Assembly (NCBI GenBank): GCA_963796955.1
Contig: CAWCNJ010000004.1
Coordinates: 128,001-192,000, forward strand
Source: Endomicrobiales bacterium
GTDB taxonomy: Bacteria > Elusimicrobiota > Endomicrobiia > Endomicrobiales > JALOBY01
Direction: 5' to 3'
Length of the DNA stretch: 64,000 nucleotides
The notes under the pieces were generated by a model. The model had not been told where the DNA came from and did not search any database. It saw only the letters and a list, made by a program, of their open reading frames with translations. Shown here piece after piece: positions 1 to 55,775 of the stretch. Both the position numbers and the translations under genes were made by a program. Within the stretch, counting starts at the first letter, position 1. Each line of letters begins with the position of its first letter.

Positions 1-3000
1 GAAAGTTCAGGTCGCTGTAGTGCAGGGCGCAAATTTCTGGGATCAGGATGCCAATGTTTTCTCAGCCGGCGCTAAATGGTACGATGCTGCCGGGACGAAC
101 AACTGGACCTGGTCCGACCCGGACCTTGTCTGGGTAGACGGCACGGCCTACGAAGTCCGCGCACGCGCGATCGATAATGCGGCTAATATCCAGCCGGTAG
201 TTGCGGCATACGATTTTACCTATGATTCCGTGCTGGCTTCAGCTACGATCACTGCCCCAATAGATGGGCATGCGTATAACGGTGTTGCCTCCATCGCTGG
301 TACGGCAAGCGATTCGATCGCGGGCCTCAAGCGTGTTGAAGTTGTAATGCGTGACCTGGGAGCCTTCGGATCGGACGGTTTCTGGAACCCTGCCACCGGT
401 AACTTTGACCAGACATATACGGCGGCTTCCTGGGGAGTTGCTGCGGGTCTGGCAAACTGGACCTTAAGCAGTTCTTCTTTCACCCTGGTTACGGGCCACA
501 GCTACCGCGCGATAGCCCGCGCCATCGACAACGCCGATAATACGCCGGCGGATCCCATATGGACGGGTGTGTGGGGAACAACGTTCCGCTTCGACAACCA
601 GCGGCCTGTTTCTCTTACCACATCACCGGTTGACGGCGGTTTCTATAACTACGATTTCACCGGCATTTATGGTACTGCCAACGATACGCCTTATGGCAAC
701 AGCGGACTGGCATTTGTTAAATATGCCATTCAGGATTCCAACGGTAAATGGTACGATGGTACCACTAACTGGACAGCCAGTTCGTTCCCCGGATGGGACA
801 ACACTTCGTTAGTTGACGGTAACCCCGGCACCTGGAGCAAGACACTGAACGCATCGCCCTGGAAGGATGGCTACAAGTACTCAATTACGGCCTATGCCCA
901 GGACAACGCCTCTAACGCCGAAATTGCATTCTCTACCATTACCTTCATGTTCGATAAGACCGCCCCTGTTTCCCAGGTGAACCTGCCGGTAAACAACAAA
1001 CAGTATAATTCTCTTACCTATGTATGGGGCGCTTCTACCGATACTACCGTATCGGCGGGCGGTCAAACATCAGGCGTACAATCAGTAGGACTGCGCGTTA
1101 AACGCGAATCCGACGGGTGGTATTTAAACAACAGCGGTGTCTGGCAAAGCGGCGTGCCTGCTGCTCTACCGCAATGCACGCTTGGTGTATCTAGTTTTAC
1201 GTTCACGGCACTGGATTCTTACTGGACCGATAACACCAGCTATACGGTAACCGCCCTTGCAACTGACCGTGCCGGCAATGCGGCTTACGGCCAGTCATCC
1301 TATTTCGTTTTTGACGCGTCGGCGCCTGTGTCTGCGATCACCTTGCCTGCGACCGATGGTCAGGTCATGACAACCCTTGCATCCATAGCCGGCGGCTCGC
1401 AAGATCTTGTTGCCGGCGGCCTTGGACAGGTGGCAGCGGTCAGCATTCGCATTCAGCGCGTTACGGTAAACGACTCTAAAGTTATGGACGGTTCCTGGTG
1501 TAACGGCCCCGGCTGGGATAGTAACTCTAACAACTGGCTGCCTGCCGTATGGAACGGCGGCGCCGGAACCTGGAGCTATTCAACTTCCAATATAGCTTTT
1601 GACTACAACGGCGGCTACCGCGTGGACGTGCGCGCAATGGACGTTGCCGGTAACTACGAATCTGTTTTCCCGACCCGCACCTTTATTTTCCGTCCGCCGG
1701 CTTCCGTTACTACGGTAAGTACGCCGGTGCACGCGAGCTTCTATAAGACGGTGGGTTCCCTTACCGGCACCGGCAACGATCAAACCAGGACGCTGCTGAC
1801 AAGCATTCAAAGAATGTCGGACGGTGCTTTCTACGACGGTTCCAGCTCTTCATGGACGGTGGTTTACGCGACGGGCGTTTGGCTGAACATCGTGCCGTCG
1901 TCACCTTCATGGTCCATGACGCTGCCGGAGTCCTTGTGGGTCAGCGGTTCTTCTTACACGGTTCGCTCACGGGGTTTATCGGTCTGGAATATCTGGGAGA
2001 ACAGTTCGCTGATAACACCGCCGGCTGCCAATGCCGTTACTTTCACGGTCGATACCGTTGAGCCGCTATCAGCTGTTTCGCAGCCGGCCAACAACGGATA
2101 TTATAATTCGCTGACAACGCTCTCCGGCACGGGCACGGACGCGACCTCCGGCGTTAAGACCGTAGAAGTGCTGATCAAGTCCGGATTGCAGTATTTCAAT
2201 ATCAATACTTCCGCCTGGACCGGTGTTGAAACCTGGAACCCGGCCTCATATGCGAATGGCAATTGGCAGTCTATCCTCTTGTCCAGCTGCGCTGCCGCGG
2301 CCTGGGCGGACGGCACCACGTATCTGGTGAAGTCCCGCGCCAGCGACAACACCCTGCCGCTGCCGGGTAATCAGGAAAACAGCGGCTCGGGTAACGCCGG
2401 GGTAAGTTTTACCTACGATCTTTCACTCCCGACGGCAACGATCACAGCTCCGGCCAGCGGTCAGCCGGTTTATAAGACGCTGACGTTCTTATCCGGACAA
2501 ATGTTGGATAACGCTCCTCAGACGGTGCAGGTTATGGTGCAGCAGCTTAATCCTTCCAGCTACTGGACGGGATCCGGCTGGCAGGCAAGCCCTGCGGTTT
2601 GGATCTCTTCGGGCGCCGGCTCGCCGCTGGCGGTGTATCAGTCTTCCTGGGTGTTAACCTCTCCCGTATGGACGAGCGCCAAAAAGTACATTATTTCAGT
2701 CAAAGCGCGCGATAAAGCGGGCAACTGGCAGAGCGGTTTTGCCGTAGGCACGAGCTCGAATTCTTTCATTATCGACCAGGACGCGCCGGCGGCCGTTGTC
2801 GCATCTCCTGCCCCGAACGGTATCTATAATGCGTCTCTCACCGCGATCACCGGTACCGCGCTGGATCCGTTCGCGCCGAACAACATCGGCATGTCACTGG
2901 GCAACCGCGTGAAATTGGTCATTAAGGATACGGACGATAACACGTACTGGAACGGTTCAGCCTGGTCGGTGAGCGTTTCAACGGTATACGCTACCAATGA

Positions 3001-6000
3001 TTCCGGCGACTGGACCGCTTGGCATTACCCGATCGCCTCCTGGATAAGCGACCGCAACTACACTGTTCAAGCCTGGGCGATAGATGACCTGGATAACGAA
3101 CAAACGGTTCCCGCGGGCTTCAGTATGGTCGTTGATACAACGCCGCCGGTAAGCTCGATAGATTATCCTGCTAATAACCAGATATTCAATTCCCTGCCGA
3201 CCCTTTCGGGTTCGGCGAACGCACAGCTTTCGGGCCTGTCCGGGCTTGACGTGCGCATCAGCTCCTGGACGGGCGCCGGCTGGTCCGTGCTGCCGGCTTA
3301 CAATTTTGTTCCTGCGACTATCTATCAGACCAGCTGGACCTTTACTGGTATAGCGGGCCTGGTAAGCGGCGTTACGTATCAGGCCGTAGCCCGTGCAAAA
3401 GACAATGCCGGTAACTATGATGTTAAGTTGTCTACGGTCAGTTTTGTATTTTTCACCGGCGCACCCACGGTCGTTATCGGCCAGCCCCTGTCCGGCGCTT
3501 TCTATGGGCCGGCGTACACCGTGCCGCTCAGCTCCGGTACCGCGACAGATCCTTTCGGCGTCAACCGGGTTGAGATAAGCATTTCACGCAATGATGGTAA
3601 GTATTGGAACCGTCCCAACAGCTGGGTAGTCCAGAGCAGCTGGCAGGTAACATCCGGCACGCTGCTGTGGTCTATCGCCAATCCCGCGTTCGAAGACGGC
3701 TACGTATACACCTTGTCAGCGCAGGCCACCAACACCGCGGGCAATACCTCGATCCCGGTCACTAAAACATTTACCTATGATAGTAATGTGCCAACGGTCT
3801 CCCTGCAAACACCTTCAACCTCGTACTATCATTCATTACCGAATATTTCAGGGACGGCTGCAGACCCTGCGGGCACCATTGGTACGAACCGTTCCGGACT
3901 TGGGCATGTGGATGTCGCGATACAGAACGACCCCGACTTCAACGGTAAATTCTGGAACCCGATCACGCATAGCTGGAACCTGGATACGCTGGGAACAGCC
4001 TGGTTCAATGCTACCGGCGATCTTGCGGGTCTTCCTTCATCTTCATGGAGCGTGCCTGCCGCTTCCACCCCGACCTGGGTAAGCAACCAGAAGTATAACG
4101 TGTCCATACGCTCAGTCGACCAAAGCGGCAACGCTTCCACCGTTATCAGCCAGGCTTTTGTGTATGATACTGATGCCCCGCTGGTTGCCATCTCGCTGCC
4201 AAGCCTGAGCTACTATAATAATCTGCCGACCATTACCGGTTCGGCCTCCGATGCCAATGATAAGGGCGGCGTCACCAATGTCCAGGTACGCATAAAGAAC
4301 TACACATTCACAAAATACTGGAACAATGTAAGCCAGGCTTTCGACATAGATGATACTGATGTCGCGCGTGAATCTTCGTGGTATACGCCGACAAACCAAT
4401 CGGGTACCTGGTCGGTATGGACGGCAACGTTCACCTGGGCCAGCGGATTTAAATATCAAATAGAGGCGCGAGCGCAGGATAATTCCGGCAATTACAGTGT
4501 GGTGTATGCCACGGCGAACTTCCGCTACGATACGCAGGCGCCAACGGCGGCGTTGGGCTTCTCCGGCTCAGGGTAGTTTTGTTCTCTCAATACCGGGCAA
4601 CGCCTTTACGGGAACCGCGCAGGACGTTCCCGCAGTCGCTGTCGGCAACAGCTACGGCGGCGCAGGGGTCTCTCAGATCGAATTCGCGATGCAGAATAAG
4701 TTAACGGGCAAGTGGTGGAACGGCGTTGATTTCAGCGCTTCCGGGGCACAGGCGTTCACCCGGCGCCATTCCCGGCGAGCCGATAGCCTGGAACTTTGCG
4801 GCCATGTCACTGACCAGCGGTGCCAGCTACTATATCACTCTGCGAACTCATGATAATGCCACCAATGTTCAGGACTTTATGGTAAATGGCGGCACGTTCA
4901 CTTTTGACACACGCCGCGGTATCAACTATTACGCTTGTTGGTGCTTCGTTCAGTTCACTTAACACTATTTCCGGAACGGCGGTAGATTATCCTGGTAATG
5001 CGGGCGGCCAGGCCGCCGGTGTAGGCTCGGTCGGGCTCTCGGTTTTGCGAGTAAGCGACGGCTACTACTGGACGGGCACCGCTGATCTGTGGGCATCTGC
5101 CACGTACTACGCCACCATGTCCGGCACCAATAACTGGCAAAGCGTAACGCTGCCGCCCTGGGCCAGCGGTGAGAAATACCGACTCCAGAGCAAGAGCTGG
5201 GATAACGCCCTGCCTGCGCCCGGTAACGACGAACAGATACTGTGCACCCGCTATTTTGTGTTCGATTCCAGCGCGCCGAGCATTGCGGTAAGCGGCCCGG
5301 TGAACGGGAAGATCTACAGCACACTGAGCACCATAACCGGCTCGGCGCAGGAATATCCGCTGGCTAACAATTCGGGGCTTAACAGAATAGACCTGAACCT
5401 GGCGGATAATACGAACGGTATGTGCTGGACAGGTTCAAGCTGGACGGTAACAGCGCAGTGGAACAGCATACCTCTCAGCGGCTCGGCGGCAAATTGGCAA
5501 TACAACTCTCTCGGCAGCGCCTTTACCAGCGGCCATACGTATACCGCCACCCTGCGCGCCTATGACACGCTCGGCAATACCCTGGCCCAGCCGACGGTAG
5601 TGAATTTTACCTTCGACAATACGCCGCCGGTTTCATTCGTGACCATCCCGGCCGAGAACATAGGCTACAATTCAACTACGCAGGTGCTCTCCACTGTATC
5701 GGGAACCGCGATGGATGTTACCGCGGGTGTAACATCGGTGAATGTATCCATCAAGGTCAATGATTACCCATCATTCGGCAATTATCGCTGGTGGAATGCA
5801 TCCCTTTCTACCTTCTCAGCCACCAGTGAAATGTGGAACCCGGCCCAGATATATGCGGTTAACGGTGCGACCTCTTCGTGGCGCCTAATTATCTCATCTA
5901 TGTCTTGGTTGTCTCCCTACACCTACGTTATCAGAACACAGGCGGCCGACCTTACCGATTTCACATCGAATGTCGAATCGTCTCTGCCGCAGCGCAATTT

Positions 6001-9000: not shown

Positions 9001-12000
9001 TGCCCTGCCGGCCGGCACCCCGGGCCAGTACCCGACCGTTACCCAGATGCCGACATTTACCGGTACGGCTTCCGATACACAGCCGGGCAGCATAAATCGC
9101 GTGCAGGTACAGATAAAACATCCGGGCTCGCCTGATACCTACTGGGACAACACCGTATGGGGCGGCGCGACCTGGCTTGATGGCGCCATCTATAATCCTA
9201 TTACGGGTGTGTGGACGTATAATACGGGTAGTGTCACCTGGTTCCCGGATCCGGGCAACGTCGGCCAGAATTACGAAGTGCGTTCACGCGCCATAGACCA
9301 GGCTGGCAATGTGCAAGGTGTTATTGCCTCTGAGGGCACGTTCATGCTTGTCCCGCCCAAGCCGCATTCTACTATAACAACTATCGTTAACGGCGCTTCC
9401 TACCAGACGCTGGGTTCTATCGGCGGCACCGCTTCACAGGCGAGCCTCGGCATAGCGGAAACCGCGAACGTTCAAATACTCATACAGCGGCTCTCAGATA
9501 ATAAGTATTACAATACGATCTCAACATCAACGGTCGGCTACTGGGTTTCGCAAACCAGCTGGATGGTAACTAACACAAGCCTTCCGACCTGGTCTTATTC
9601 CATTGAACCTTCAACGTTCTCGCACAATATACAATATAAAGTGTTGACAAGGGCGATAAGCATCGACGGAGTTCCGGAATGGAACCCGGCGCCCTACGGC
9701 AGCGACACCGTGCCGCCGGTCCCGAACTCATCCGTCAGTTTCTGGATAGACAGCCAGGCGCCTCTGCTTGCCATAGTCAAGCCGCAGTCTAATTTTGACA
9801 ATTCTACAACGGTAATTTCCGGCACCGCCCAGGATGTGCCGGCCGGGATAAACCATATTCAGATATCCGTGATGCGCAACAGTGATAACAAATTTTGGAA
9901 AACCTCCGATAACTCCTGGAACGTCGGCCAGGTGATGAACTCTACTTCTACCTGGGACGGCACGGTCTGGACCATGAACCTGCCGGTATCGCCCTGGATA
10001 GACGGCAACCAGTATCAGATAATTGCAAGCGCCTATGATAACGTGGTGCCGGTATCAAATCAAAGCAATGCGACTACCAATTTCGTTTACGATGTTTCAT
10101 ATCCGACGGCAACTATCACCTCTCCCGCGCACAAGAGCATTATTTCGGCGGTAGACACCATGAGCGGCGCCGCGATGGATACGGCCCCCGGGCAGCTGCA
10201 GCAGGTGGACGTGCTTATTCAGCGCGCCGACGGCCGTTACTGGAAAGATGATATAGCCGACCAGGGCTGGAAACTGACGCCCGCCTGGAATGCTACCACG
10301 CTCTATACCTCCAGCTGGACCTGGGTAAAACCCGCCGCCCTTTCCTGGAACGGGAATACCACTTATTACATTACGGCGCGCGCCCTTGACAAGGCCGGCA
10401 ACCAGCAGAATAATTTCATTCTGGGTTCCTCGTCGATAACGATCTACGACGACTTGATCGCTCCTACTATCACCATGACCTATCCGGCGAATAATACAGC
10501 CATAAACCCCGGCGCTTCCTTTAACTTTACCGGCAGTATTATTGATAACCTCGCCGGAGGTGCGACGGTGGAAATGTTGTTCAGCCGTTTCAATAGTAAT
10601 GGAACGACCGATTATTGGACGGGCGCCGCGTGGTCCGCTTCCAGCACCACCTTCCGGGCGGAAGAGCTCGGCTTGCCGGGCCTTACCCGTTCCTGGTCGG
10701 AACCCTTTGTGGCCGCCAATTGGCTTTCAGATATGCGCTACAATATTAAAGTGCGCGGTATCGACGATGCAAAACCCGTGGGCAATACCGGCGCCTGGCA
10801 TAATGGCGGGCTTGGCTATGATTTCGTGATTGACACGACTCCGCCCAACTCGCAGGTGAATATGCCGGTTGACGGGACAACCTACCGCTCCATGACGCAG
10901 ATATCCGGCACTGCCAACGCCGATATGGCCGGCGTCGCTTCGGTGGGAATAACCATTCAACGTATCGCCGGTATAAACAATGACGGGCACTATTGGAGCC
11001 ACTTTACAAACCAGTGGGTAGTTGGCTCTACGCTGTGCCCTGCGAACGTAGTGCAGGGAACGGGTACCAAATCCTGGACGTATAACATCGCCGACAGCAA
11101 CTGGACCAGCGGCACGCAGTACCGCATTGTCAGCCAGGTGATCGACCTTGCGGGCAAAGCCGATATCACGTTCAGCACTGCAACATTCGTATTTGATAAT
11201 ACCGTCCCGCAGGTTACGGTGCAAACCCCCTCATTACCGTTCTACGGACCAAGCCGCCTGCTGAATACTATTTCCGGAACCGCCCTGGATGATCCCGCAG
11301 CCGGTCTTACCGCCGGGATCGACAAGGTGTACGTACGCATTAAGCAGGGCGCCAACCAATACTGGTCCGGCAGCGGCTGGGTCGCTTCGTCAAGCTGGGT
11401 GGTGGTTGCCGGCGGCAACAGCTGGACGTATCCCGCGCCTGTCTGGACCGACGGCGTAAGCTATGTAGTGAATGCCCGCGCGGTAGACCTTGTCGGCAAC
11501 CTTTCAGGGTGGACGACTGCCAGCTTCCTGTGGGATGAAACCATACCTCAGGCAGTATTGCAGCAGCCGGACACGGATTTCGAGGCCGCCCCGCTTTCCA
11601 CACTCTCAGGCACCGCTTACGACCCGGGTGCGGCGAACCAGAAATCGTATTTGGATAAAGTTGAAATAGCCATACAGATCAATCCCTCAGCCAGCGGTAA
11701 CTACTGGAGCGGCAGCAGCTTCAACTCGTCGAGCATTCAGTGGCTGCCTACCAGCGCCAACGGTTTGGCGGATGGCATTGACACCGTTAATCCATGGACC
11801 TTTACCGGTTCCACGCCCACCTGGTCTGACGGTGTGGAATATAGCGTAAGCGTTCATTCAATTGATAAAGCCGGCAACACCTCGTCAGTCGCGTCAAAGA
11901 CGTTCCACTACGATGTGTCTTACCCGACGGCCAGCGTACAGAGCCCGCCCAACGGTTCCATAAATTCAGCGGTGGACAGCATAGGCGGCGCCGTAATGGA

Positions 12001-15000
12001 CAGCGCTCCGGGCCAGTTGCAGTCGGCCGCTGTTGCCATTCAGCGCTACGACGGAAAATATTGGAAGGACGATATAGCCGACCAGGGGTGGAAGGTTTCT
12101 TTGCCTATCTGGAACCCGGTAACGATGTTCGTTTCCAGCTGGACGTGGGTGAAACCGGGGACCCTTGACTGGGGCAACAACGCCACCTATTATATTACCG
12201 CGCGCGCCACGGACCAGGCCGGCAACGTGGAAAATAATTTTGTATTCGGCATTTCGTCGGTCACGTTCTACGCCGACAACCAGGCCCCGTCGGTGAGCAT
12301 GGATTATCCGGCTAATGGTTCAACCATCAGTCCTGTAAATTCATTTAACTTCTCGGGCAACATCCAGGATAACCTTGCCGGCGGCGACTACCGTTGAGCT
12401 GTTGTTCAGCCGTTTCAACAACGACAATACGACCAGCTACTGGAATGGCGGCGCCTGGATGCAGGGCAGTGCGGTAACATTCCGCGCAGACCAGCTGGGC
12501 CTGCCGGGATTGAACCGTTCGTGGGCTTATACCTTTAACGCGGCGAACTGGCAGTCCGATATGCGCTATAACGTAAAGGCGCGCGCCTACGATGATGCCA
12601 AACCCGTCGGGAACATGGGCGGCTGGCATAACGCGGGTCTTGGTTATGATTTCATAATAGATACGACGCCGCCCAACTCCCAGGTGAACATGCCGGTAGA
12701 CGGTTCAACGTATCGTACTATGACACAGATAAGCGGCACGGCTAACGCCGATATGGCCGGTGTCGCATCAGTGGGAATAACCATTCAGCGCATAGCAGGT
12801 ACGGCTCCTGACGGTAATTATTGGAGTAACTATTTAAACAACTGGGTCGGCTACTCCACGTCTTGCCCCGCGAACGTAACGCAAGGACCGGGAACAAAGT
12901 CGTGGACCTACGCTATCGCCGACAGCAACTGGACCAGCGGCACCCGCTATCGCATAGTCAGCCAGGTGCGCGACCTCGCGGGCAACGCCGAAATTTTGAT
13001 GAGCACCGCGACATTCGTGTTCGATAACAGCGCGCCGCAAGTAAGCGTGCAGGCGCCCGTCTCGCCGTTCTATGGGCCAAGCCGCCTGCTGGATACTATC
13101 ACGGGAACCGCCGCCGACAATCCTTCACCGGGCCTTACCGCCGGTGTTGATAAAGTATTTGTGCGTATTAAGCAGGGAGCCAACCAGTACTGGTCCGGTA
13201 CCGGCTGGGTCGCCTCCTCCAGCTGGGTCGTGGTCTCAGGCGGCATAAACTGGACGTATCCGTCACCTGCCTGGGCGGACGGCGCAAGCTATGTTATAAA
13301 TGCCCGGGCCGTAGACCTCGTCGGCAATTTGTCAGGCTGGACGACTTCGACCTTCCTGTGGGACCAGAGCCTGCCGCAGGTGGTCTTGCAACGCCCGGTC
13401 AATGATTTTGAGCCGGCTCCTCTGTCTCTGCTTTCGGGAACGGCATATGACCCCGGTTCAGCCGGTCAGAAATCGTACCTTGACCGGGTGGAAATAGCTA
13501 TTCAGGTGAACCCCGCTACCAACGGTAACTACTGGAGCGGTAGCAGCTTCAACACATCGGATATCCAGTGGCTGCCCACCAGCGCGAATGCGCTTGCGGA
13601 TGGTATCGATACCGTCAATCCCTGGACCTTCACGGGTTCCACGCCCACCTGGTTGTCCGGTACGTCGTATCAGGTAAGCGTTCACTCGGTGGATAAAGCG
13701 AACAACACCTCCACGGCAGCCGCGAAAACATTTATCTTTGATAATATAGCGCCGACCACCAAGCTGACGACGCCGCCGGGAGACGTGCTTACCACCAGGC
13801 AAAACACCATGACGTCCATTATCGGGACGGCGGCGGATACCGCGCCGGGTCTGCTGAACCGCGTTGAGATCCGCATCAAACATACCAGCTCCGGCTATTA
13901 TTGGAACCCCGCGACGCAGGCCTTCGAAGGTTTGGCAGCCGATAGCGCCTGGTTCATAGCGACGACCACGGTGACACCGGCGTACACCGTCTGGAATACC
14001 ACCCAATCGATCACCACTCTTTCCGATGGCACACAGTACCAGATCGTCGCGCGCGCGCTTGATATGGCCGGCAATTACCACGTGGCGTATACCACCGCAA
14101 ATTTTGTGTATGATATCTCTCCCGCCAGATCGTATGTTACGGTGCCCGGGGCCAACAGCACTATGTGCCAGCTGCCTTCGATGTCGGGGACCGCGGTAGA
14201 CGCAGCTGGGGGCTCGGTAACCCTGGTTAAAGTTGCCGTGCGCAACAACCGTAACGGAAAATGGTGGGGCGGTTCAGATTTTACGGAACCAACGCCGCTG
14301 TATCTGGATGCTCTTGGCACGAATCCATGGGGCTTTGACTGCACGGCCGCCGGAATGACCGCCATGCTTTCATCAGGTTCTTCTTATTATATTGTCACCC
14401 AGGCATGGGATAACGCCCTTAACACCGAAGCATATCCGGGGAATGGCCCTGTAACATTTATCTGGGACGTCACCAGCCCCACTTCAACCGTGGTTGTACC
14501 GGTCAATGGTTCCTCATATAATGCGCTGGCGACGATCACCGGCGCCGTCGCCGATGTGCTGCCGTTCGCCGGGGCAACACCGTCCGCGATCAACAAAGTA
14601 CAGGTCGCGGTGCAGGACCTTACCTACCCGACGACCTACTGGAGCTTCGCCACGGGCTGGCTTAATACGGCGCAGTGGAATGACGCCGTAACGTATCAAT
14701 CATCATGGACGTTTGCGAACATACCGCTATGGCAGTCGGGCCGCTTCTACGGTATTCGCTCAAGGGCCTTTGACAGCGCCTTGCCGCTCCCTGGCAATGA
14801 CCAGAATACCCAGTGGCCGCAGAGCAACTACGTTATATTGTTCGATTCCATACCGCCGCAGGCCGCAATGACCTCGCCGGTAAACAACGCGATCACCAAC
14901 ACGCTTCCGCTGCTTACCGGTACCGCTCAGGACCTTCCGTCGGTCAATTCCGGCATAGACAAGATACTGGTTGCGGTTCGCGAGATAGATCCCGTCGGTA

Positions 15001-27000: not shown

Positions 27001-30000
27001 AACCCGGCACCGCATCCCTGACTGCCGGAACAGGACCATTCCTGGTAACATTGCCGACAGCTTCAACCTCACATTTGATATTTGCTTATGATACCAGCAA
27101 TACATACTCTACAGGTACTGCCACCATGTTCCAGGTCTCACCGGCGCCTGCAGCTAGGTTGCACATCGTGCTGCCCGGCGAAACCTATACGCCAGGCAAA
27201 CCTCCATATGACGGCACGGGTGGTAAGACAAATGCGCCTGTCACCCAGACTGCCGGCCAATCATTTACCCCCACAGTGTACTTAACCGATCTGTACTACA
27301 ATATCCGTTCAGGTGATGTAAGTAACACTGTATTTATTCATTCATCGGATCCTAATTTTAGCGCGCCTTCCGGACAGAGCATAAACAGCGGGCAGGTATC
27401 AATACCTGTAAGATTGGTTACTTATAATACGCAAACGGTCGGAGCAACTTATCAGGATTTATCTATAAGTTCGACGACGTCAACACCACTGTATGTGCAG
27501 CCAAATGCTCCTGCTAGAATGCAAATAGTAGCGCCCGGTGAAACTTCGCGTCCTGGCAAATGGAACAATGGTTCTAACATACAACCTTTTGGCAAGTCCG
27601 GGACGCCCAATCAGGTTACGGCGGGTAGTTCTTTCCAAGTAACAGTTACGGCCTGTGATAATTATTATAACCCTACAACCGCTCAACCAGATGCCACAGT
27701 TACTACCACAGATCCCTATGATGTAGAGCCGGCCACCCAGACCCTGCTGAACGGGTCAACGACTTTCACCATAACATTGGTAACGCAGCGCGTTACCATA
27801 GCTTCGGCGACCGCAAGCGGCTATACGCCTGACTATACGGGTAACATAACGGTTAACGCAGCCTCGGCCTCCGGATTGCAGATCATCCTGCCGGGCGAAA
27901 CGGCGGTACAGGGTAAGTGGAATGTTGAACCCGCGGGCAAGACCGGTGCCCCGGCTGCAGCGACGGCGGGCACTCCCTTTAGCGTGACGGTGCGGGCGAT
28001 AGACCCGCACTTCAATCTATGCAATATAAGCCAGACCATCGATCTGGAAAGCAACGACCCTAACGATGCCAACCATACCGGCGTCCCTCAGCAGAATAAT
28101 TTGTCCGGCGGATCGGCGACATACAACCGCATACTGCTGACGGCGAATACCAGCTGGATATTTACCGCCACAGACCGCGACCCGAGTTTGCCGTCCCTGA
28201 ACCCGGCGGTTTCCACACCGGTATGGGTGAATGCCGGCACGCCGTGGCGCATACTGGCACTGGTGCCGGGTGAAACGTATCTGCCGGGCAATACCGTAAG
28301 CCAGGGCGGCGGCAAGGGCGGCTCGCCGCTGCAGCAGACCGCGGGTGTGCCTTTTGTTACCACCGTTATCGCCTGCGATCTGAATTGGAATAATGTGCCC
28401 GGTGAAACGTCGGTCGTGGACCTTAGGTCGACGGATAATTTTGCGGATCTGCCGGCTGGCTATCAGGAACACGGTTTTGGCGCGGACGGCCGCACGACTT
28501 TCACGAACACTATCTACACCGCCAGCACGCAAACCTTCTACGCTTCAGGCGTCGGCGAGCCGGTGCTGAACCACGGCAACATACTTAACCCCTATACCAG
28601 CTCGGTCGTTACCGTGGTTTCTTCCGACGCCGTCAAGATGCAGGTGCTGCTGCCGGGTGAAACGTACGTGGCCGGCAAGCCGCCCTATAATCTCGGCGGA
28701 GGCGGCAAGGGCGGGGCGCCGACCCAGCGGGTAGCAGGCGTGCCGTTCAATGTCACTGCCAGAGAAGTGGACCCTTACTGGAATACCGTTACTTCTATTG
28801 TTTCACAGGTGCGTTGCGATACGGACGATCCCTACGATGTGCAACCCGCTATAGCGCCGTTGGCGGGCGGTCTGCGCATATTCCCTATCGATCTGGTCAC
28901 GGCATCAACCTGGACAATAACTGCCGTCGATACTGATGATGCCGCTATTGCCGTGAATGTTTCTTCGCCGGTCTACGTTGCGCCTAATAGTGCCGACCGC
29001 CTGCAGGTGCTGTTGCCGGGTGAAACCGCGGTAGCCGGAAAATTCGACGGCAAAACGGGATCGGCAACACCGCGTACCGCCGGAGTGCTTTTCGCGGCCC
29101 AGGTCAGACTGACAGATGCCTACTGGAACACTATTTACGCCGGCGCGATGCCCACAGTTTCCCTCGGTTCTACGGACGTCTATTGGAGTACCCCAACCGC
29201 GAAGACGCTGGTGGCGGGGGTGGTCAATTTCTCTGGTGTGTCCGGCCTGACGCTGGTCACTGCCACGACAACCACCATTTTTGCGGATGGCGGCGGTTAC
29301 ACCACCGGTGTTTCATCACCGGTACTGGTTATGCCTAATACCGCTACAAAAACGATCGTTGTCGTTCCCGGTGAAACACAGGTTAACGGAAAGAACGTGC
29401 CGCCTCTGGGCCGCAGCGGAACGCCCGCCACCGAGACGGCCGGGCAGATGTTCACCATAACGGTTTATGCGGTGGACGGTAATAATAACTTCGTCAATAC
29501 CGTGAATATAAATCCGGTGAACATCATAACATCCGATATTTACGACACCGATCCGGGTAATTTGAACATGGTTAACGGATTGATAACGACTAACGTAACC
29601 ATAAAGACGGCTAAAGCAACCGTTGTCTCGGCGCTTCCGGGCGGCGCACCTCTTGCTCAGGGCGATTCTTCCAGCATCCCGGTGGTAAGCGGTGTGGCCA
29701 GAAGGCTGCAAGTGTTGTTGCCCGGCGAAACCGCGGATCCCGGCTCAGTAAGCGGCAAGATCGGCTCTCCAGGCAACCAGGTTGCCGGTTACAGCTTCAA
29801 TGTAACCGTGCGCACCTGCGACGATTATTGGAACGCGGTGTCGACCAATCCGATGATCAGCGTTTACAGCGACGATATTAATTCACCCTTTAATCCTGCA
29901 TTCAGCGGCCAGATGGTGTCTAATGCCGTGGTAAGCGTTATGATGGTCACGGCATCTACCAACACCTACACGGTGCGGGCAGACGACATAGACGGGGTCT

Positions 30001-33000
30001 CGCCCGACCTTATCAGCGGTATTTCTTCGGGTGTTCGCATTGTCCCGGGCGCGCCAAACCAGTTATTGGCGATAGTACCGGGCGAAGAATTCAACGGCGG
30101 TACGCTTACCGGCAAGACCGGTTTGCCGAATGTTATTACCGCCGGTACCCTGTTCTCCGCGCGCGCTGCCGTTTGTGACCCCTGGTGGAACCGTGTGTCC
30201 AATATCGGCGTTACCATTATCGCTACCAGCCCGCTGGACCCTTACGACGTCGAACCGGCGCAGGGCGCTGTTGACCCGACGGATGGCACCGCCTCGTTCC
30301 TGTTCACCCTGCACCGCGCGGTAACGCAGTATATACTTGCAACGGACGCCAATACGGTCGGCCAGACGTTTACGGCCAACAAATCGTCGGTATTCAGTTG
30401 CGTGCCCGCCCTGCCCATACAGTTGCAGGTGCTGCTGCCGGGTACGACCGGCGTGCCGGGTTCCGTCAGCGGCCGCATCGGCATGCCAGCCGCGCAGACC
30501 GCGGGCGCCGGTTTTTACGGAACCGTCAATGTCGTTGACCAGTTCTTTAACGTCGCGACGCAGCTGGATCCGCAGCCGCTGGTGCATATCAATACGTCCG
30601 ACCAGTATGATGCGGAACCTTCTACTTCCATCCTGGTAAGCGGTACGAACCAGTTCTATATTAACCTGCGCACCGCGGCCACCAGCCATTTCGTGGTCGC
30701 CTCGGATGTGGACTGGTATCGCGCCGCTCTATAACCCTGACACGAGCGACGTCTTCACCGTTAACCCTTCCAGCGCCAACCAGATACATGTTATTTTGCC
30801 CGGCGAAACAATTCTTGGCGGATCGTTCACGGGTAAAGCCGGAACGCCCTCAGCATGGATCGCCGGACAGTCCTTTACAGCGACCACGTACCTGACCGAC
30901 CAGTTCTTTAACCGCATTCGCGGTGGTGTTACCATGCCGACGGTAGCGGTGCAGACCTGGGACCCGCAGGACCCGGAACCGCCCTCAAATCAATTGAGCC
31001 AGGGCTCTAACGTTTTCGCCCTGACACCGGAAACCGCCGCCTCTACCTGGACGGTAACCGGCATCGACACGGGCGGGCAATACGTGAGCGGAACTTCCAG
31101 CATGATCCGCGTATGGCCGGGCCCCGTGCACCATTATGTGATCTCAGGCCTGCCTGCCAGCGTTATCGCGGGCGCCGGATTTGATATACGCCTGAATGTT
31201 CAAGACCAGTACTTTAACATGGTCTCTACGGGCCCCAGCTGGGATGCTTATTCGAATGCCAAGGGTGTTTCGGGCGTGGACGCGCATTTTGACGCCGAAG
31301 TTTTCCCGCAGCCCCAGAATGCCACAATGCCCGTCGATTATAATTTTGTGCAGGAAGATTGGGGAACAAAGCTGTTCGCTTCAGGCGGCGTCTTCCGCCG
31401 TTCAGGCTCACGCTGGCTGAAGGCGAAGGATATCCTTGACGGCACGAATATAAATTCAGAACTGACGAAGAACGGGATCATTTATTCCACGCGGCCGTAT
31501 GTAACGGTATTGCCAGGTGACTTCTATAAGGTCATTATCTCTACCGACGCTCTGGCGCTCGGCACACCCGCAGGAGATATGGAAGTGCCTGCCGGTTCGC
31601 CCAACACCATGCTTTCTTTCGGCCATAAACAGATCTACGGACAGCTGGCCGACGCCTTTAACAATGCGATCTCAAGCGGCGGCGTTACCTTGTATTTCAA
31701 CGTGGTAAGCGTTACCGGTTCCACCGGCACTGTGAAGGATAACCTGGGCAACATAATAACCTCGGCTGTTACCGATGCCCAGGGCCGGGTCGGCTATTCA
31801 AGCGCCATCAGCTACTTTGTTTCCACCAAATCCGGCGAAAGCGCCCGCGTCTGGATAGCTACCTTCACCGCGCCATCCGATATAACCGGTTACCTGCCGG
31901 AGTCCAAGAATATTTCAGGGAACTTTACGACTACCGGCGGCGATCCCTACCGCGTCGGTTTTGCGAACTTCCCTGCCCAGATCATCGCCGGTCAGGAAAG
32001 CTCGCCCATGAGCGTATACCGCTACGATGCATTCGGTAACCTTACCAAACAGGGCGCTTTCCCCGTATACCTTACGAGCAACGAGCTAACGGGTCGTTTC
32101 TCTTTCCGCAATCCTCCAGGAGCCGGTAACGAAGTAACCAGCGTGTATATAGGTCAGGGAGAAACTTCGGCTGATTTCTATTACTACGATGAAATGTCTT
32201 CCCTGCCGGCGGGCGAAGACGGCCGCCCGGGCCAGTGGACGTTGACCGGTAACGCGGGTTTAACCCTTGCTGCGACCGCCTACCTTACCATCGTACCCGC
32301 GGATACGACAAAATTGATGTATGATAATCCGCAGCGCACACTGATAGCCAACCGTCTGGTGGATGATGTCGGTGTTATACGCCCCTTCACGCTACAGCCG
32401 CAGGATACGTACGGCAACCCGACCATCTCCACCACCAATTCGATCTTCGTGAAGTTAAGCACGGATCGCCTGTCTTCGCCGACGAATGATAATTACGGCT
32501 TCTCGCTTTCGAGCACGCCATTCATACCCATAGGCAATGCGCTGGTAGAGATCACGACCGGCACCTATTACGTTAACCTGTATTACCGCGACACCCGCGC
32601 CAGCAATAGCTACAGCCCTATTAACAGCAAGCCGGTGCTGCACGCGACCGAGATCCCCACTAAAGCCTGGGCGGTAGCCTCCCAGTATGTGAACGTACTG
32701 CCCGATGCTATCACCAAGACGTCTATAATCTCGCCCGCACAACAGCTGACGGCCGGCGCCACATCGCAGCCCTTCCTGATCCAGACGCAGGATACGTATT
32801 CCAACCCCTCGTCGGTCACGCCGGTGCAGTCCGATCCGGGTGAGAACGGCGTGCGCTACGTGCTGTGGAATAACTCCGCCGGCCACGAGGAATTCTGGTC
32901 GTACGGTTATAACGACCATGCGTCAACCGGTGTCGCTAAGATCACGGTGGGCACGAACACCACCTACTTCTATATGGTGGATACACTTATGGGCAGTGCC

Positions 33001-36000
33001 ACGGTATATGCAGATGAAGACGGCTTCCTGCCCAGAGGCTGGGCAGGCGCTGCGGAAGGTTATACGGTCGTGGCCGCGCCGCCCTATAAACTGGTCATCG
33101 GCTCGCCCGTGCGCCGGCTTATCGCCGATACCACTATTCAGTATGATCCGGATTTTACGTATAACAGCACTACCGATACCTTTATTTCCGTGCAGACACA
33201 GGATTTCTACGGGAACGTTTCACCTGTTTCTTCCGTAACCATCGTTTCCGTTAAAACCGTCATGCCGCCTTCCATGCCGGGAGCCCAGATCTCCGCCGAT
33301 AATTTCAACTGGGTACCGGGGAACCCCTCGGACATGCCGCTTAATCTGAATATGGCGCCGGGAGAATCCACCGTTAAATTCTACTTTAAGGCCAAAATAG
33401 CAGGACTGGTGCCCATAGCGGCGACCGTGCCCGGTATGCAGCCCGCGACACAAAATGAAATAATTACGCCGGGCAAGATCGATTATTTCACCGTCGAACA
33501 CAACTTTACCGAAGCCAACCCGCTTTCCGTCCAGCTGCCGGGCGCCGTTTCGGTGCAGGCGCGGGATTATTACGGTAACGCCGCCAGCGGCGATCCGGTC
33601 AATGGAAATTACTACACGGGCACGGCGCTCTTCTGGACGAACGGTTCAACGGATACGGTAACGCTCAATCCATTAAGCTACACCTTTACCCAGAGCACCA
33701 GCACCTATCAGCCGATCGCCGGCCGCTTTATAAACCTGCAGGCGCGTGACCTGCGGCAGGAATACCTCAGGGTCGGGGCCACCGACCAGGTGAACCCGTT
33801 GATAAACGGCTGGACCAACGATCAGCGCGGCACCTGGGGCGATGTGGTTACTGCCGGTGTGGTCGTTACGCCCACCGATTTCGCGCCGGATCCGGATGAT
33901 TCATATAAGACCGGTTTCCTGGCGCAGAACCCCACCCTGCAACAGGGTGACGGTTGCATCACCAGTCGCCCTGCGCCGGTCGCCATGCTGCGCCTGCGTA
34001 TGGAAATTCAGCCTAAGGTCGTGGCCTCAACGGCCTCCTGGAACTACATTACCGTTACCCGGTACGGCACTCTGCGCTGGGACCAGATACGCAGCATAGA
34101 TATCTATCGCGACAGCGGCGGGGATACTTTTAACGGCGATACTGTGCTTGGTCAGCCCTGGACCGCGGCCGATACCTTTATCTCCAGCGCATCTTTCACC
34201 AACGGCAATGCGGACCTGGATATCCCCTTAAGCATTCCTCAGACTATCACGAAGACGCCTCAAACGTATTTCGTCGCCGTGCGCGTGGAACCTACCGCCG
34301 ACCCCGGTTCCACACTGGCCCTGGGCATTAAGAGCAATAAGATCATACTGGCGCCGGGCGGCGTGCTGCTGGCCAGCAATAATATACCGTGCATATCCAC
34401 CTATTCCGTTATCGCCGTGCGGCTTTCCGATGTGCTGGTCGATTACAAGAAGACGGACCCGATGTCCAACATTGCGGCCTATTACGACCCTGACGGCAAC
34501 GGCCCGCTGCCGTCGGCTAAACAAACTTCCGCGCCGCAGGGATACTTCGGCGTCGGCATGATGCGCTTCGGCCTGTGGACGCCGGAGCTGACGGCGCATC
34601 TTAAGACGTTGAAGGTCACCCAGCTCGGCACCGCCGATGATAAGGATATTATTTCCTGCACCCTGTATGAAGATACGAACCTTAACGGCACCTTCGAGCC
34701 GGCTACGGATATAGCGGTCTCGCCTGATGTGCCGATCAGCGGCGGCGTAGCTACCCTGCCGGTTAACAGCCTGCCCTTAGGCGTTAATCTTATAAACCAG
34801 ACCACGCATTACTATTTTGTGGTTTACCGCCTGGCGAACGGCGCCCAGGTCGGCCGCACCATCGGCGCTTCCCTCTCGGACTTTACGTTCCCCGACGGCC
34901 AGATAGCGGCCGCGGGTCCTGATGCCGCCAACTTCCCCGGACAGATCGCCGTGATGGCGCAAATGTCGTCGGATACACCTCTGATAGCCGCCACGCCGGA
35001 CACGCTGGTAATAGACGCTAAAACATCGGTGAACCCCGGCGTTGTCACGCAGGGTGACCAGAATGTGCCGATGATAAAGCTGCGCCTGCGCACCGATACC
35101 AGATCCCTTATCTGGCAGGGCTTGCGCGTAGACAGGCGTAATCAGTACGGACTGAACGTAGACAGCGACGTCTCGAACGTGAAAGTATGGTATGACACCT
35201 GCCAGGCAAGGCTCGCGCAGAACATGACGCCGCTTACGACCGGGTTGCTGCAGCTGACCACCACGTACGGCCTGGCGCCTTCCGGTAATCTTTTTATAGA
35301 TGACGAAGTGCTGACCTACGATTCCATCGTCGGCAGCGCGGTAAATCTGCCCGACGGTATCAGCACCTTTAGAGGCCTGTACAACACGACGCCCGCCACC
35401 CACAACATGAACACGACCGTAACGGGCACGGGTGACGGCATATTCAACCCGAATACCGACCAGCTTATTTCGCCGCCTTCTCCGCCGAGCATCCTGTTCT
35501 CGACCGGCGTGTCGCACATTACCATAACCGGCCCCAAGGGCGGCCAGGAACTGCTGGCCCAGGGCGTTGGTAAGGGTAAGACCTATTTCGTAACCTACGA
35601 TATAGACAACTTCGCGACGCTCGGCCAGACGTATCTTGGCCTGGATATAAAGACCACTGACTACTTTACGGTGAATACGCCGAAGATGGTTTCCAACCAG
35701 TCCCTGCCGGTATTCTGCGAGGTCGTAACGGTGAGAGAGTACGCCGACAAGGTAACCTTTACCCCCAGCGATACGACTCTGAAAGCCACCCTGTCACAGG
35801 CGGCTACCAACCAGCCGATAATCTCGTTTACGGCTCATACCGATAAGTCTGAGGCCACGTTCAAGAACATAATAGTGAGCCGCGCCGGCACCGGTTCGGA
35901 TTCGGATGTGACCGCGGTGCGTATATGGTACGACGGCAATAACGACGGACTGCTGAACCTGGGCACAACGCAGGATTATGTTATCGGCCAGGGCTCTTTC

Positions 36001-39000
36001 GGCAATGCCGGTGTACCGGGAGAAGCTTCAATAGACATATCGTCCATGTCCATGTTATTGGCAGGCTGCACTGTGACACCGGATATCTGGAGCAAGATAA
36101 CCACCACCGGGCGCGGCGCCAAACATTTCTTTGTAACGTATGATATCTCAAGCGTGGCTTTGCCGGAATACACGCTCGGCGCAACGCTTGCCGCGACTTC
36201 AAAAATACAGGTTTCCGATCCGAACTTCGTGGATACGGCCAACCTGCCGTTCACGTCGACGCTGCGCACGCTGGTGCCAAGCTCGCGCAATGTTACCATA
36301 ACCCCTGTGGCGCTTAACACAGCCTCGCTCGCCTCATCTGTGGGTGCGGCCGACAACCAGATATCTCTTAGCTCAGTGGCCAATTTCCCGGATATCGGCG
36401 CTCTGACGATAGATTCGGAAATAATCCTCTATACCAGCCGCGACACGCTCGCCAACACCGTCAGCGGCCTGACACGCGGCGCGTGGAATACGGTTGCAGC
36501 CGCACACACCGCCGGTTCATTTGTTTCCCGCAGCTACCTGCAGGGTACCGTGAACGCGCCGATGCTTAAACTGACCGCCGCCTGCGACGGCTTCCAGGTG
36601 CGCTGGTACCGCCTGAAACTGGACCGCATCGCGCCTACCGGCCTGAACGGCGTTGATGCCGACATTCACCAGATCCGAGTTTACAAAGATAACGGGGACG
36701 GCATACTTAACCGTGACGATTCAACGGGCCTGATAGGCGCCGACCAGCTGGTCTCAAGCGGTACGGCGGTATTCACCAACGGCTCGGTGCAAATAAACCT
36801 TTGCGGCGACGGCTCAAGCTACAACACCGATACCAAGCAGATTGAATCCTATTCATTGATAACAACGACCCCGACGGTATACTGGGTTACTATGGACATC
36901 GATCAGACCGCGACCATCGGCTCCAGCATCGGCATGGGCTGCCAGCTGTTCGATTATGTGCAGGTGGGCGCGACGCAGAGGAACGACGGCGTGCATAAGG
37001 TTGTCGACGGTCCTTCAGTGGTATACCCCGGCGACCCCTTCCCGTTCCGTTCCGGTTATGCCTTTGTGTACGGCACTATAGATAATTTAATGGTCAATTA
37101 TGACGCCCCGTCGCTGGCCAGCATTATGCAGAACGCCAAGAACGTGGCCGTTATGAGCTTTAACATGAAGACCGATCAAAATACGGCGATCTGGACCGGT
37201 GTGAAGCTGGACCTGACGGGTACCTGTATCGATAACGATATTTCGATCGTCAAGGTGTGGAGAGATCTGAACGGCAACCAGGTGTTCGACGTAGCCGATT
37301 CCACGCAGGACGCGTTCGGTAACTTTCCGGGCCTGTTGTCCTACGGTACGGAAAACTTTGCCAATCATACGGTCAATATTAAATTCAAAACTCCCCAGGT
37401 CATAGGTTCCACCCAGTCCATTACGTACTTTGTAACCATGGATATGAACTCTCTTGCCAAGGTCGGCCACACGGTGGGATTGTCCATCGCTAACACAGGA
37501 TACTTTACGGTAGATGTCCCCGACAAGGTCCAGCTGCTCAGGGCCGCCCCCTATACTTCGCCGGTAACGCCTATTTCGGAATATCCGGATACGGTTACCT
37601 TTGAGCCGTGGCCCTGGTTCGATCCGGTAAACAACAAAGACGTGCTCGCGGGCGTTACCACATCGCAGGGCAATAAGAACCTGACGGTGCTTAAGTTCCG
37701 TCTCAAGACCGATGTCGCGGAAGCGATCTGGGACCATATACGCATATCCCGTATCGGTATGGGCGCGCCGGGTATGCCGGTTAACGGCACGAACAGCGAT
37801 GTGCAGTACGTAAAGATCTACGCAGATTCGAACTTTAACGAATCGTTCGACGCCGGCGATACGTTAATAACTTCCGGTACCGACCAATTTACGTCCGACG
37901 CCATAGGACCGACGCTGGATATACCGCTTACCGTGCCGCAGACCTTACGGCCGACGCCGCAGGTCTACTTTGTGCTGTACGATATTTCTCCCACCGCCTA
38001 TGCCAACGATTCAGTCGGTATCCGCGTGCAGGATAAATCGTGGATAGCGGTGAGCACGCCCAATTTTGTCGCCCAATTCCCCATGACCACGCCGGCAACC
38101 CGCCGTTTAACGCGCAGGGTTACTTTGACAGCTCTATGTCTCAAATACTGCCGATCAGTATCAACGTGCAAAGCGCCAACGAGGCGCCGCTGGTCAAACT
38201 GCCGGGTGACACGAATGTGCCGATCTTACGTCTGCGTATGACGACCAGCATTAACAGCGCGGTGATCTCCTCCATTACGATCCACCAGACGGGCACTATT
38301 GAAACGTCGCCCGTGGATCCCACCTATTACAACGGCATGGGTGATGGCGATTTCTACCGGCTGAAATTGTGGGTGGACGACGGTGACGGCGTTTTCGATC
38401 CCACCAAAGATACGCTTGTTTCCGTTATGCCGCACCGCAAATGGGTATTGGATGCCGGCCTGAACCCGAACAGCACGCCTAACTTCGCGGCCAGTGTGGC
38501 TATCCTGCCTTGCGGCGTGACCATTGATGCCGCCGGTAAAACTTTCTATGTCACCGCCGATATCGGAACCCAGGACCTGGGCAACCGCACAACCTTCAGC
38601 CACAGTGCCGGCCTGCAGCTGCTTCGGTGGGAATCTATCACCGCGGTGCCCGCTTCCGTTGTTTCTAACGGCGGCAATACGTTCCCGTATAAATCGATCA
38701 ACCTCTCCATCGCCGATGTTTCCATCACATCGGTCGACGTGAGACCTGATGAGGCGGGAGTGCAGTCAGAAGGCTGGTGGAATTCCAATACCACCCTTGC
38801 CGCTTCATGGCAGATCATTAAAGTTAAAGACGCGCAGGTAACCTCTTATAAGGCTGCCGTCGGAACACGCCCTCTCGCCCAGGATGCGACGCTGGGCATC
38901 GGTTCGGCGGGTTGGATCAGCACCACGAACCAGAGCGTGCAGATAAGCGGCCTTGCGCTGAGCGAGCCGGTAGTGGTCTTCCTTGCGGAAGATTTCCTTA

Positions 39001-40281: not shown

Positions 40282-40310
40282 TTGACTTAAACTCAATTAT
40301 TGAATATAAT
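40282..40310 (+). promoter_or_regulatory. Sigma70-type promoter
   Basis: TTGACT-17 nt-TATAAT, about 40 nt upstream of a G-rich RBS and GTG at 40352. Confidence 0.8.
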
Positions 40311-40351
40311 TGCGAAAAGAATATAGTCTTCTGTTGATCAAGGGGGGGAGT

Positions 40352-40882
40352 GTGAAACTGGTGCCTTTATGTCTGGCGCTTTTTGTTTTACAAAGCACAG
40401 TAGCGGTTTCAGCAGAAAGAATTTTAGTAAATTCAGGCGGCAGTGGAAAATCCTCACCAAAAATACTTTCTGTAAGCTTAAGTCCCTTCGCCCATGGATA
40501 CCGCGCAGTTTCGAAGGTCTCCATGCAGTTGGGCGGCCCGAAAAGAGCCGGCAGTTTCCTTCCCGATGCCAGTTTTGTTCTCCGTGACGTGTACGTATTC
40601 CCCAATCCAGCCAAAACAGGAAAAATGCCGACCATTCATGTTGAGGTAGGCGTAGCCGATCAGGTGCAACTGCATATATATGATATCGCAGGTGATCTTG
40701 TTCATAGTGTCGTCTTGTCTGATGCACCGCAAATAATAGATGATGGAACAGGTAAGGATTATGCCTATGAATATAAATGGGAAGACAATATAGCAAGCGG
40801 CGTCTATTTGTGTGTGGTGCGCGCTCAAAAATCTGGCTATGGTGATATAAATAAAACCATTAAGCTGGCGGTGATACGATGA
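40352..40882 (+). CDS. Small exported protein consisting mostly of a T9SS type-A-like CTD
   Basis: GTG after AGGGGGGGAG (the TTG at 40310 overlaps the -10 box); hydrophobic N-terminus ending AVSA; YVFPNP...IYDIAG...IASGVYLC...KLAVIR*. Confidence 0.82.
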   Translation: MKLVPLCLALFVLQSTVAVSAERILVNSGGSGKSSPKILSVSLSPFAHGYRAVSKVSMQLGGPKRAGSFLPDASFVLRDVYVFPNPAKTGKMPTIHVEVGVADQVQLHIYDIAGDLVHSVVLSDAPQIIDDGTGKDYAYEYKWEDNIASGVYLCVVRAQKSGYGDINKTIKLAVIR

Positions 40883-48923: not shown

Positions 48924-48996
48924 AATATAAGAGTATCTAAAAGGATCTGGTTTAAAAAGATGCAACAGCTTACAAAAGTTTTTAAACAAAACACGC

Positions 48997-49041: not shown

Positions 49042-49073
49042 TTGCCTTATACCATATTCAACAGGAGCTCATT

Positions 49074-50843: not shown

Positions 50844-50866
50844 AAGTTACTTTGGGAGACCAAAAA

Positions 50867-55753: not shown

Positions 55754-55775
55754 CTAACCCTTCAGGGAGGATGTC

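Follow-up and report, generated by a model that had tools for sequence, protein, structure and literature searches.

The question raised by the 64,000-nucleotide stretch of Endomicrobiales contig CAWCNJ010000004.1 analysed here (positions 128,001 to 192,000, hereafter the window) is whether the open pieces that fill its first 39,995 nucleotides (nt) are separate genes, the remains of a decaying gene, or the fragments of one giant gene cut up by the assembly. The window corresponds to G000:C4:128001-192000, where G000 is the source genome (2.1 Mb, 11 contigs, 81% complete), that of an uncultivated soil bacterium of the Endomicrobiales (Elusimicrobiota). Analysis of the open reading frames (ORFs) showed that 13 pieces, each open from stop to stop, tile the whole interval 1-39995 on the plus strand, and that at all 12 junctions the next frame is already open before the preceding one closes. 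The junctions are of both signs, eight being +1 (a surplus of one base or a lack of two) and four -1. A preliminary description of this DNA had proposed one giant gene hidden as 13 ORFs with 12 breaks at named places, and the breaks were confirmed by the frame analysis and, at eight of the places, by the frame changes in the orthologue alignments described below. These comparisons support the view that the 13 pieces are fragments of one gene of ~17,900 codons, which would encode a protein of ~1.9 MDa.

The window holds the last three quarters of this gene. On the contig, the same frame runs on upstream through two open stretches (C4:114211-124839 and C4:124840-132576), and the first ATG stands at C4:114232 (window position -13768, ~13.8 kb upstream of the window), overlapping the stop codon of the gene before it. 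As read by eye from the sequence, this ATG is followed by two basic residues, a hydrophobic stretch and an A-x-A site, and the giant protein thus appears to carry the N-terminal Sec signal peptide looked for in type IX secretion cargo; a start of this kind is present on the first piece only. The preliminary description had placed the N-terminus outside the window, expected a size larger than the more than 13,300 codons it claimed, and proposed extension upstream to a start and signal peptide together with a comparison of orthologues. These expectations were borne out, with a start, a signal-peptide-like sequence and ~17,900 codons. From ATG to TAA there are 53,764 nt, and subtraction of the net +4 bases of the 12 shifts leaves 53,760 nt, which is exactly 17,920 codons. 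The read-through protein, with an X at each break, comprises 17,916 residues (1.91 MDa; isoelectric point 4.6) and is abundant in Thr, Ser, Ala, Gly, Val and Asn. The gene and its frame-shift zones are the following (window coordinates; the A modules are described below):

-13768 to 39995 (G000:C4:114232-167995), plus strand: giant gene, whole, 53,764 nt.
1 to 39995, plus strand: giant gene, in-window part, 13,331 codon positions.
4464 to 4576, plus strand: frame-shift zone 1 (+1), near 4555; an A module (residues 6050-6172) spans the zone with 80 bits.
4705 to 4853, plus strand: frame-shift zone 2 (+1), near 4760, from three-frame translations.
4886 to 4962, plus strand: frame-shift zone 3 (+1), near 4910; an A module (residues 6186-6293) spans the zone with 67 bits.
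12339 to 12397, plus strand: frame-shift zone 4 (+1), near 12383; one base extra relative to a tandem copy.
20209 to 20255, plus strand: frame-shift zone 5 (+1), at 20213-20242; orthologue alignments switch frame at 20213/20242.
23007 to 23106, plus strand: frame-shift zone 6 (-1), near 23085; orthologue alignments switch frame at 23085/23112.
24445 to 24500, plus strand: frame-shift zone 7 (+1), an extra C in CC at 24449-24450 that is absent from a contig of read run X1; orthologue alignments switch frame at 24449/24451.
25248 to 25446, plus strand: frame-shift zone 8 (-1), at ~25275-25323; orthologue alignments switch frame at 25296-25323.
25582 to 25790, plus strand: frame-shift zone 9 (+1), near 25724; orthologue alignments switch frame at 25723/25724.
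26751 to 26946, plus strand: frame-shift zone 10 (-1), near 26800-26805, beside a CCCC run; orthologue alignments switch frame at 26799.
30640 to 30734, plus strand: frame-shift zone 11 (+1), near 30714; orthologue alignments switch frame at 30710/30718.
38037 to 38241, plus strand: frame-shift zone 12 (-1), at ~38094-38106; orthologue alignments switch frame at 38103/38106.
39993 to 39995, plus strand: stop codon TAA of the giant gene.

The repairs proposed earlier at individual breaks were reproduced. LTNGTTTF at 24450 is encoded by an independent short-read contig, while GAPSKLQVLLPGE at 26805 and DVDGIAPLY at 30714 were obtained from the two frames on either side. The break at 12383, said to be checkable against a duplicate, shows a single additional base when compared with the tandem copy at 10138-11883 (73% identity). 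The suggestion that the breaks often lie in short G/C runs was only partly upheld: 24450 (CC) and 26805 (CCCC) fit it, but 12383 and 30714 lie in no run.

Related genomes supplied evidence for a single gene. Using a 480-amino-acid (aa) piece as query, matches were found in 8 of 41 genomes, namely the source genome itself and seven relatives. Two genomes of the same order carry uninterrupted orthologous frames, of 17,970 aa (G012:C31:30982-84894) and 17,343 aa (G006:C6:90170-142201), which are colinear with the pieces across all breaks and uphold the claim of one giant gene. In two further relatives the open frames reach 7,312 and 6,476 aa, and the shorter of these is probably cut by its short contig. 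When the two full-length proteins were compared by tblastn with C4:114001-168300, they gave colinear chains of 11 (G012) and 8 (G006) high-scoring segment pairs (HSPs). The 17,970-aa protein scored 9,811 bits against the pieces over its 11 colinear HSPs, and by this sequence comparison the alignment of the pieces to one orthologue is far beyond chance. Orthologue coordinates abut where the window changes frame: residues 12725 and 12726 of the G012 protein meet at 24449 and 24451, and residues 13159 and 13160 at 25724 and 25723. Identity to the orthologues is 29-36% in the first third of the protein and 42-63% in the remainder, and at an E value of 1e-5 an N-terminal part of ~2,000 residues (against G012) or ~1,250 residues (against G006), including a head of ~960 aa, was left unaligned. 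The orthologues resemble the giant gene in the order of their parts, their module totals, the near-identical last ~100 aa and a downstream PorV/PorQ-like gene, and differ in having no frame shifts and in an A array that is offset by blocks.

The next question is whether the shifts are present in the cell. We compared 454 ORFs of at least 200 aa, taken from 680 kb of a genome of the same family (G001), with G000, and 272 of them had a homologue at 40% identity or more (103,311 aligned aa). Frame changed at 15 of the 18 junctions between colinear HSPs, and the conserved genes broken in this way included gyrB, atpD, secD, lon, gltB, ilvB, serA, tgt, ruvA, phoH (PhoH) and, twice, queA. Since one cell cannot have lost all these conserved genes, the assembly must be error-prone throughout. 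Of the 15 background shifts, six are crowded into 19 kb (C7:70971-89790; ruvA, queA twice, tgt, secD and a gmhB-like gene), a local stretch of low assembly quality with a shift density close to that of the giant gene. Moreover, the orthologue in another Endomicrobiales metagenome-assembled genome (MAG; G003:C4:257805-308863) changes frame at 25 of 27 junctions, and such assemblies systematically hide the giant-gene family.

Among public reads, a single run (X1) contained part of the stretch (share 0.06; 7 of 30 bins covered). Seven of its contigs could be placed, six of them at 99% identity or more, and these six together show one substitution and one indel. A 226-nt contig of depth 5.1 spans 24374-24600 without a substitution and with one letter fewer at 24449, where the assembly has CC; the single C restores one frame, reading ...LTNGTTTF.... 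The other five near-identical contigs span no break, and one of them (25730-25880) begins just past the break near 25724. A copy from the same species was also sought: metagenome contigs gave eight loci (best identity 65%), genome contigs gave one locus (57%), and a search with longer proteins gave 16 hits (best identity 50%). None of these was usable on the remaining breaks.

All the lesions are single-base indels, and no plain nonsense substitution was found across the 17.9 thousand codons. Only one in-frame stop occurs, a TGA at C4:124837-124839, which lies 5' of the window (in the region G000:C4:124800-124920, window positions ~-3200 to -3080). It sits in a stretch of ~30 codons whose agreement with the orthologues and with the A-module profile improves in another frame; when that frame is read from window positions ~-3182 to -3093, the family-A match grows from profile positions 47-82 to 11-82 and gains 9.5 bits. 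The TGA region is therefore probably a compensating -1/+1 indel pair ~89 nt apart, bringing the total to 14 indels and no plain nonsense change. Further compensating pairs that enclose no stop may exist; an off-frame profile search for them returned none, but missed the known pair as well and is thus uninformative. An alternative genetic code was also considered for the upstream TGA and was rejected, this being a lone TGA within a stretch that reads better in another frame.

On these grounds we would put at roughly 85% the probability that the 12 shifts in the window and the upstream pair are mostly or all consensus errors rather than real mutations, and that the full-length protein is most likely made. 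The earlier proposal that the indels are repairable assembly errors is thus well supported, although direct read evidence bears on 1 of the 12 sites in the window only, through the contig of depth 5.1. Several further points weigh against assembly error. Run X1 may derive from the same sample or from a strain that differs slightly. The giant gene has 12-14 shifts per 53.8 kb (~1 per 4 kb) against a background of 15 per 310 kb (1 per 20.7 kb), a ~5-fold excess that is not fully accounted for, and 7 of the 12 shifts fall inside the ~12-kb B array described below. Sequence context offers a partial clue: 8 of the 12 breaks in the gene lie within 8 nt of a CCGG, against 21.6% of positions by chance, in a post hoc comparison with positions partly chosen by eye. 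In the background set of conserved genes 8 of 15 shifts do so against 4.07 expected, and the density of CCGG in the giant gene is 1.5 times that of the genome. This proximity may reflect a context-dependent basecalling or sequencing error.

Of the alternatives, the one that survives best is a real and recent pseudogene in this strain, with some or most of the indels true, or a population mixed for intact and broken alleles. The ~5-fold density would fit it, as would the clustering of the shifts (355 nt at 4555-4910 contain three of them, and 3.7 kb at 23083-26805 contain five), the single site with read evidence, and the fact that giant non-essential surface genes are plausible targets of loss. 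However, the sole read-covered site is intact in the other run, the same assembly splits gyrB, atpD and secD so that its indels cannot be trusted at face value, and conserved genes on C7 show a comparable local clustering. Decay would also have to have spared 17.9 thousand codons from any plain nonsense change, with single pieces open for up to 2,638 codons, and the G003 orthologue, from another assembly, is broken in a like manner. We therefore consider decay unlikely.

An operon of 13 adjacent surface-protein genes is far less credible still. Some ATG, GTG or TTG can be found near the beginning of each longer piece, but the orthologue alignments cross the junctions and take in residues 5' of those start codons, relatives encode a single ORF, and the signal-peptide-like start is confined to the first piece. 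In addition, breaks fall inside eight B and two A modules, which become complete only on read-through; all eight of these B modules score normally once read through with X (91-143 bits). Biological recoding by programmed frameshifting, or phase-variable on/off tracts, is just as improbable: a few sites do lie in short C or G runs, but the 12-14 sites are of both signs, have no slippery motif in common and include no long homopolymer or repeat tract, the orthologues are read without any shift, and the extra base at 24449 is missing from the short-read contig.

With the gene taken as one intact unit, the architecture of its product was determined by windowed self-comparison and self-built profiles, giving the following parts:

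Residues 1 to ~960, plus strand, upstream of the window: non-repetitive head containing a beta-propeller.
Residues 978-10,897 (in-window part 1 to 18914), plus strand: A array of ~80 immunoglobulin (Ig)-like modules of ~120 aa, with weak Big_13, Big_3_3, Big_3_2 and Big_7 matches.
Residues 11,012-14,980 (19260 to 31140), plus strand: B array of 32 modules with a period of ~120-125 aa, from a self-built profile.
31144 to 34086, plus strand: conserved non-repetitive region of 981 aa without a family match.
Residues ~15,960-17,280 (34084 to 38100), plus strand: a few weak internal repeats.
38103 to 39992, plus strand: C-terminal 630 aa, 60-63% identical to the orthologues, with a FlgD_ig match at 39729-39947.

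The ~80 A and 32 B modules counted here come close to the ~100 beta-sandwich modules estimated earlier. In Pfam searches, window 2-4573 matched Big_13 (49.3 bits, cut-off 27) and Big_3_3 (44.3 bits, cut-off 27), and further Big-type matches above the gathering scores were found in three other pieces; matches of this kind to Big_13, Big_3_3 or Big_3_2 characterise bacterial surface proteins with Ig-like repeats. The B modules had no Pfam match. For one of them (window 28629-29030, in an alignment of 75 sequences) structure prediction gave a nine-strand, all-beta sandwich with a predicted local distance difference test score (pLDDT) of 94.3, and a Foldseek search with this model returned generic beta-sandwiches only (best E 8.7e-4, template-modelling score at most 0.56).

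Module numbers are conserved, at 80 A modules against 82 (G012) and 80 (G006), and 32 B modules in all three proteins. Every B module finds its best match in either orthologue at its own array position (32 of 32), and the top-scoring orthologous module outranks the top paralogue from the same protein in 29 of 32 and 30 of 32 cases. Because of this positional orthology, and because orthologues outscore paralogues, the B array is to be regarded as old and fixed rather than homogenised, which suggests that its modules have been in place since the families of the Endomicrobiales diverged. The A array differs from those of the orthologues by offsets of whole blocks, with the total kept. Modules are 30-40% identical to one another and DNA repeats are almost absent. 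The only sizeable one is a tandem duplicate of ~1.75 kb (~5 A modules), at 10138-11883 and 11959-13711, with 73% DNA identity; a second self-BLAST match is of 100 bp. Collapse of repeats in the assembly was considered and rejected, as self-BLAST of the 54 kb gave only these two DNA repeats and the module counts match those of the orthologues.

The head had 312 relatives at an E value of 0.001 or below in a library of representatives. Its query residues ~463-926 are predicted with confidence to form a beta-propeller, which aligned with WD40-type, BamB-type and bacterial lectin propellers at Z 20-24 over ~300-350 residues, a shared fold that in itself is no evidence of function. For the first 460 residues of the head the predicted fold was poor (pLDDT below 50). 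For the non-repetitive parts, Pfam searches at E values up to 1 gave nothing above noise, searches of PDB sequences gave no hits or a single hit at E 0.18, and searches of the ESM Atlas gave low-recognition leads only.

Adhesins of the Marinomonas ice-binding kind provide a comparison. They carry ~120 tandem, near-identical Ig-like extender repeats, have a mass of 1.5-2 MDa and are exported by type I secretion. The giant protein shares with them a mass in the range 1.5-2 MDa and more than 100 tandem Ig-like modules that would serve as the extender linking a binding head to its anchor, but its modules are only 30-40% identical, its DNA is nearly free of repeats and its end is type-IX-like.

Export through a C-terminal domain (CTD) had been proposed for the giant protein, and the CTD is indeed conserved, the last ~100 aa being near-invariant among the three orthologues. 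It is of a type-IX-like or FlgD_ig-like kind, with a FlgD_ig score of 20.3 bits (cut-off 27) and weak matches to the CTD ends of NF052323 (E 2.6e-5) and NF033707 (E 6.8e-5). The genes that directly follow the giant gene are the following:

40310 to 40882, plus strand: small protein (190 codons, counted from stop to stop) whose sorting domain is type-A-like (22.2 bits with TIGR04183, cut-off 23).
40879 to 41811, plus strand: outer-membrane barrel of the PorV/PorQ family (NF033709, 151.6 bits, cut-off 90).
41808 to 43637, plus strand: membrane glycosyltransferase-like protein (GT-C type, PMT_2, E 5e-11) fused to TPR repeats.

Both orthologous loci (2 of 2) also have a homologue of the PorV/PorQ-like gene downstream of the giant gene. 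The PMT_2-TPR protein, not found in those two loci at an E value of 1e-5, could glycosylate surface cargo. Elsewhere in the source genome an ORF of 1,828 aa is SprA-like, with four colinear hits of 55, 47, 37 and 30 bits.

Several results tell against such an export route, for which the core type IX machinery comprises SprA/Sov, PorV, PorU and GldK/L/M/N. TIGR04183, which with PF18962 models the 80-100-aa type A CTDs of type IX cargo, had no hit in the giant protein, and the CTD of the giant protein falls under every curated cut-off. Each of the SprA-like hits is below the 200-bit cut-off. PorU matches were confined to the CTD-like ends of seven ORFs, and no PorU body was found. Searches of the 81%-complete genome gave no match to GldK and none to GldM, the latter search being silent in control genomes too. 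Export through the CTD is, on sequence grounds, a reasonable inference, and the assignment to type IX cargo is tentative.

In the SprB/SprF type of Bacteroidota type IX cargo, giant repetitive surface proteins that begin with a signal peptide and end in a sorting domain are encoded next to a barrel of the PorV/PorQ/PorP kind. The giant gene is alike in all four respects, with its repetitive product, signal-peptide-like start, putative sorting domain at the C-terminus and neighbouring outer-membrane barrel. It is unlike that system in belonging to another phylum, in having a type A/FlgD_ig-like rather than a type B domain, in being ~3 times longer, and in the failure to find GldK or GldM.

A working model can be built from these parts. 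The gene would encode a 1.9-MDa acidic cell-surface fibre composed, in order, of a Sec-type signal peptide, the ~960-aa propeller head, ~80 A modules, 32 B modules, and a ~2,900-aa conserved tail with the type-IX-like C-terminal sorting domain at its end. The protein would cross the inner membrane by Sec, and its CTD would then be handled by a reduced type-IX-like route made up of the SprA-like protein and the adjacent PorV/PorQ-like barrel. With a length of ~4 nm assumed for each of the 112 modules, the fibre, once anchored, would hold its propeller head roughly half a micrometre off the cell. A fuller version of the model, which we hold to be tentative and on the doubtful side, is that the protein is a length-controlled spacer for a variable propeller head, selected for its total reach (~0.5 micrometre), as the 32 B modules kept in place and the A total held at 80-82 despite block rearrangements would suggest, and exported by a stripped-down type-IX-like route (SprA-like protein and dedicated PorV/PorQ-like barrel, with no GldKLMN motor) not described outside Bacteroidota-related phyla.

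Giant proteins as such are not new to this phylum. The read-through of 17,916 residues and the orthologues of 17,343 and 17,970 aa place a single ORF of at least 10,000 codons in Elusimicrobiota, where proteins of at least 10,000 aa are often detected and where those above 30,000 aa, found in Omnitrophota only, mark a record that the giant gene falls well short of (bioRxiv 10.1101/2023.11.21.568195). Elusimicrobiota are also listed among the bacterial phyla most enriched in proteins of more than 5,000 aa, which are described as poorly characterised (PMC11573180). The giant gene thus is real and very large, but such giants have already been reported in Elusimicrobiota. It falls among the very large proteins of Elusimicrobiota and other phyla related to the Planctomycetota-Verrucomicrobiota-Chlamydiota (PVC) group, and the passages of these reports that were consulted do not describe its module arrays or its sorting domain (bioRxiv 10.1101/2023.11.21.568195; PMC11573180). 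Our literature search found no description of this giant-protein family.

Nothing here overturns current knowledge. A well-delimited protein family of ~18,000 aa is added in Endomicrobiales. Its notable elements are an undescribed 120-aa beta-sandwich B module and the one-to-one conservation of 32 tandem modules, together with a type-IX-like sorting domain paired with a PorV/PorQ-like barrel in a phylum without established canonical type IX secretion. In practical terms, a 54-kb gene appears as at least 13 hypothetical ORFs in an error-prone MAG in which housekeeping genes are split too, and gene counts, completeness estimates and giant-gene surveys based on such assemblies will miss or miscount such proteins.

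Some further features were noted downstream of the giant gene. A scan 3' of its stop detected no terminator, and inspection by eye showed only a long-loop inverted repeat. The 310-nt AT-rich gap that follows holds a near-consensus sigma-70-like promoter at 40282-40310 (TTGACT, 17 nt, TATAAT; 11 of 12 matches). The genes for the small CTD protein, the PorV/PorQ-like barrel and the glycosyltransferase may be transcribed separately. Between the export-related genes, an 836-aa protein with a phage tail collar domain (E 2e-21) is encoded at 43642-46152. A UPF0164 barrel-TPR protein (47286-48923) adjoins an unusual 627-aa fusion (48960-50843), in which TPR repeats and a FliF-C-like stretch are combined with the middle and C-terminal domains of FliG (E 3e-27). 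The plus strand is strongly A-rich from 50000 to 60000, with an AT skew of 0.31-0.37, and encodes proteins of 1,633 aa (50852-55753, TPR at the end) and 1,233 aa (56147-59848, no family). The latter ORF overlaps that at 55776-56375 in a different frame, and this may be another frame shift. At the end of the window, 60530-64000 forms the start of another large, open-ended surface protein of at least 1,157 aa with fn3 and Ig_Rha78A_N domains.

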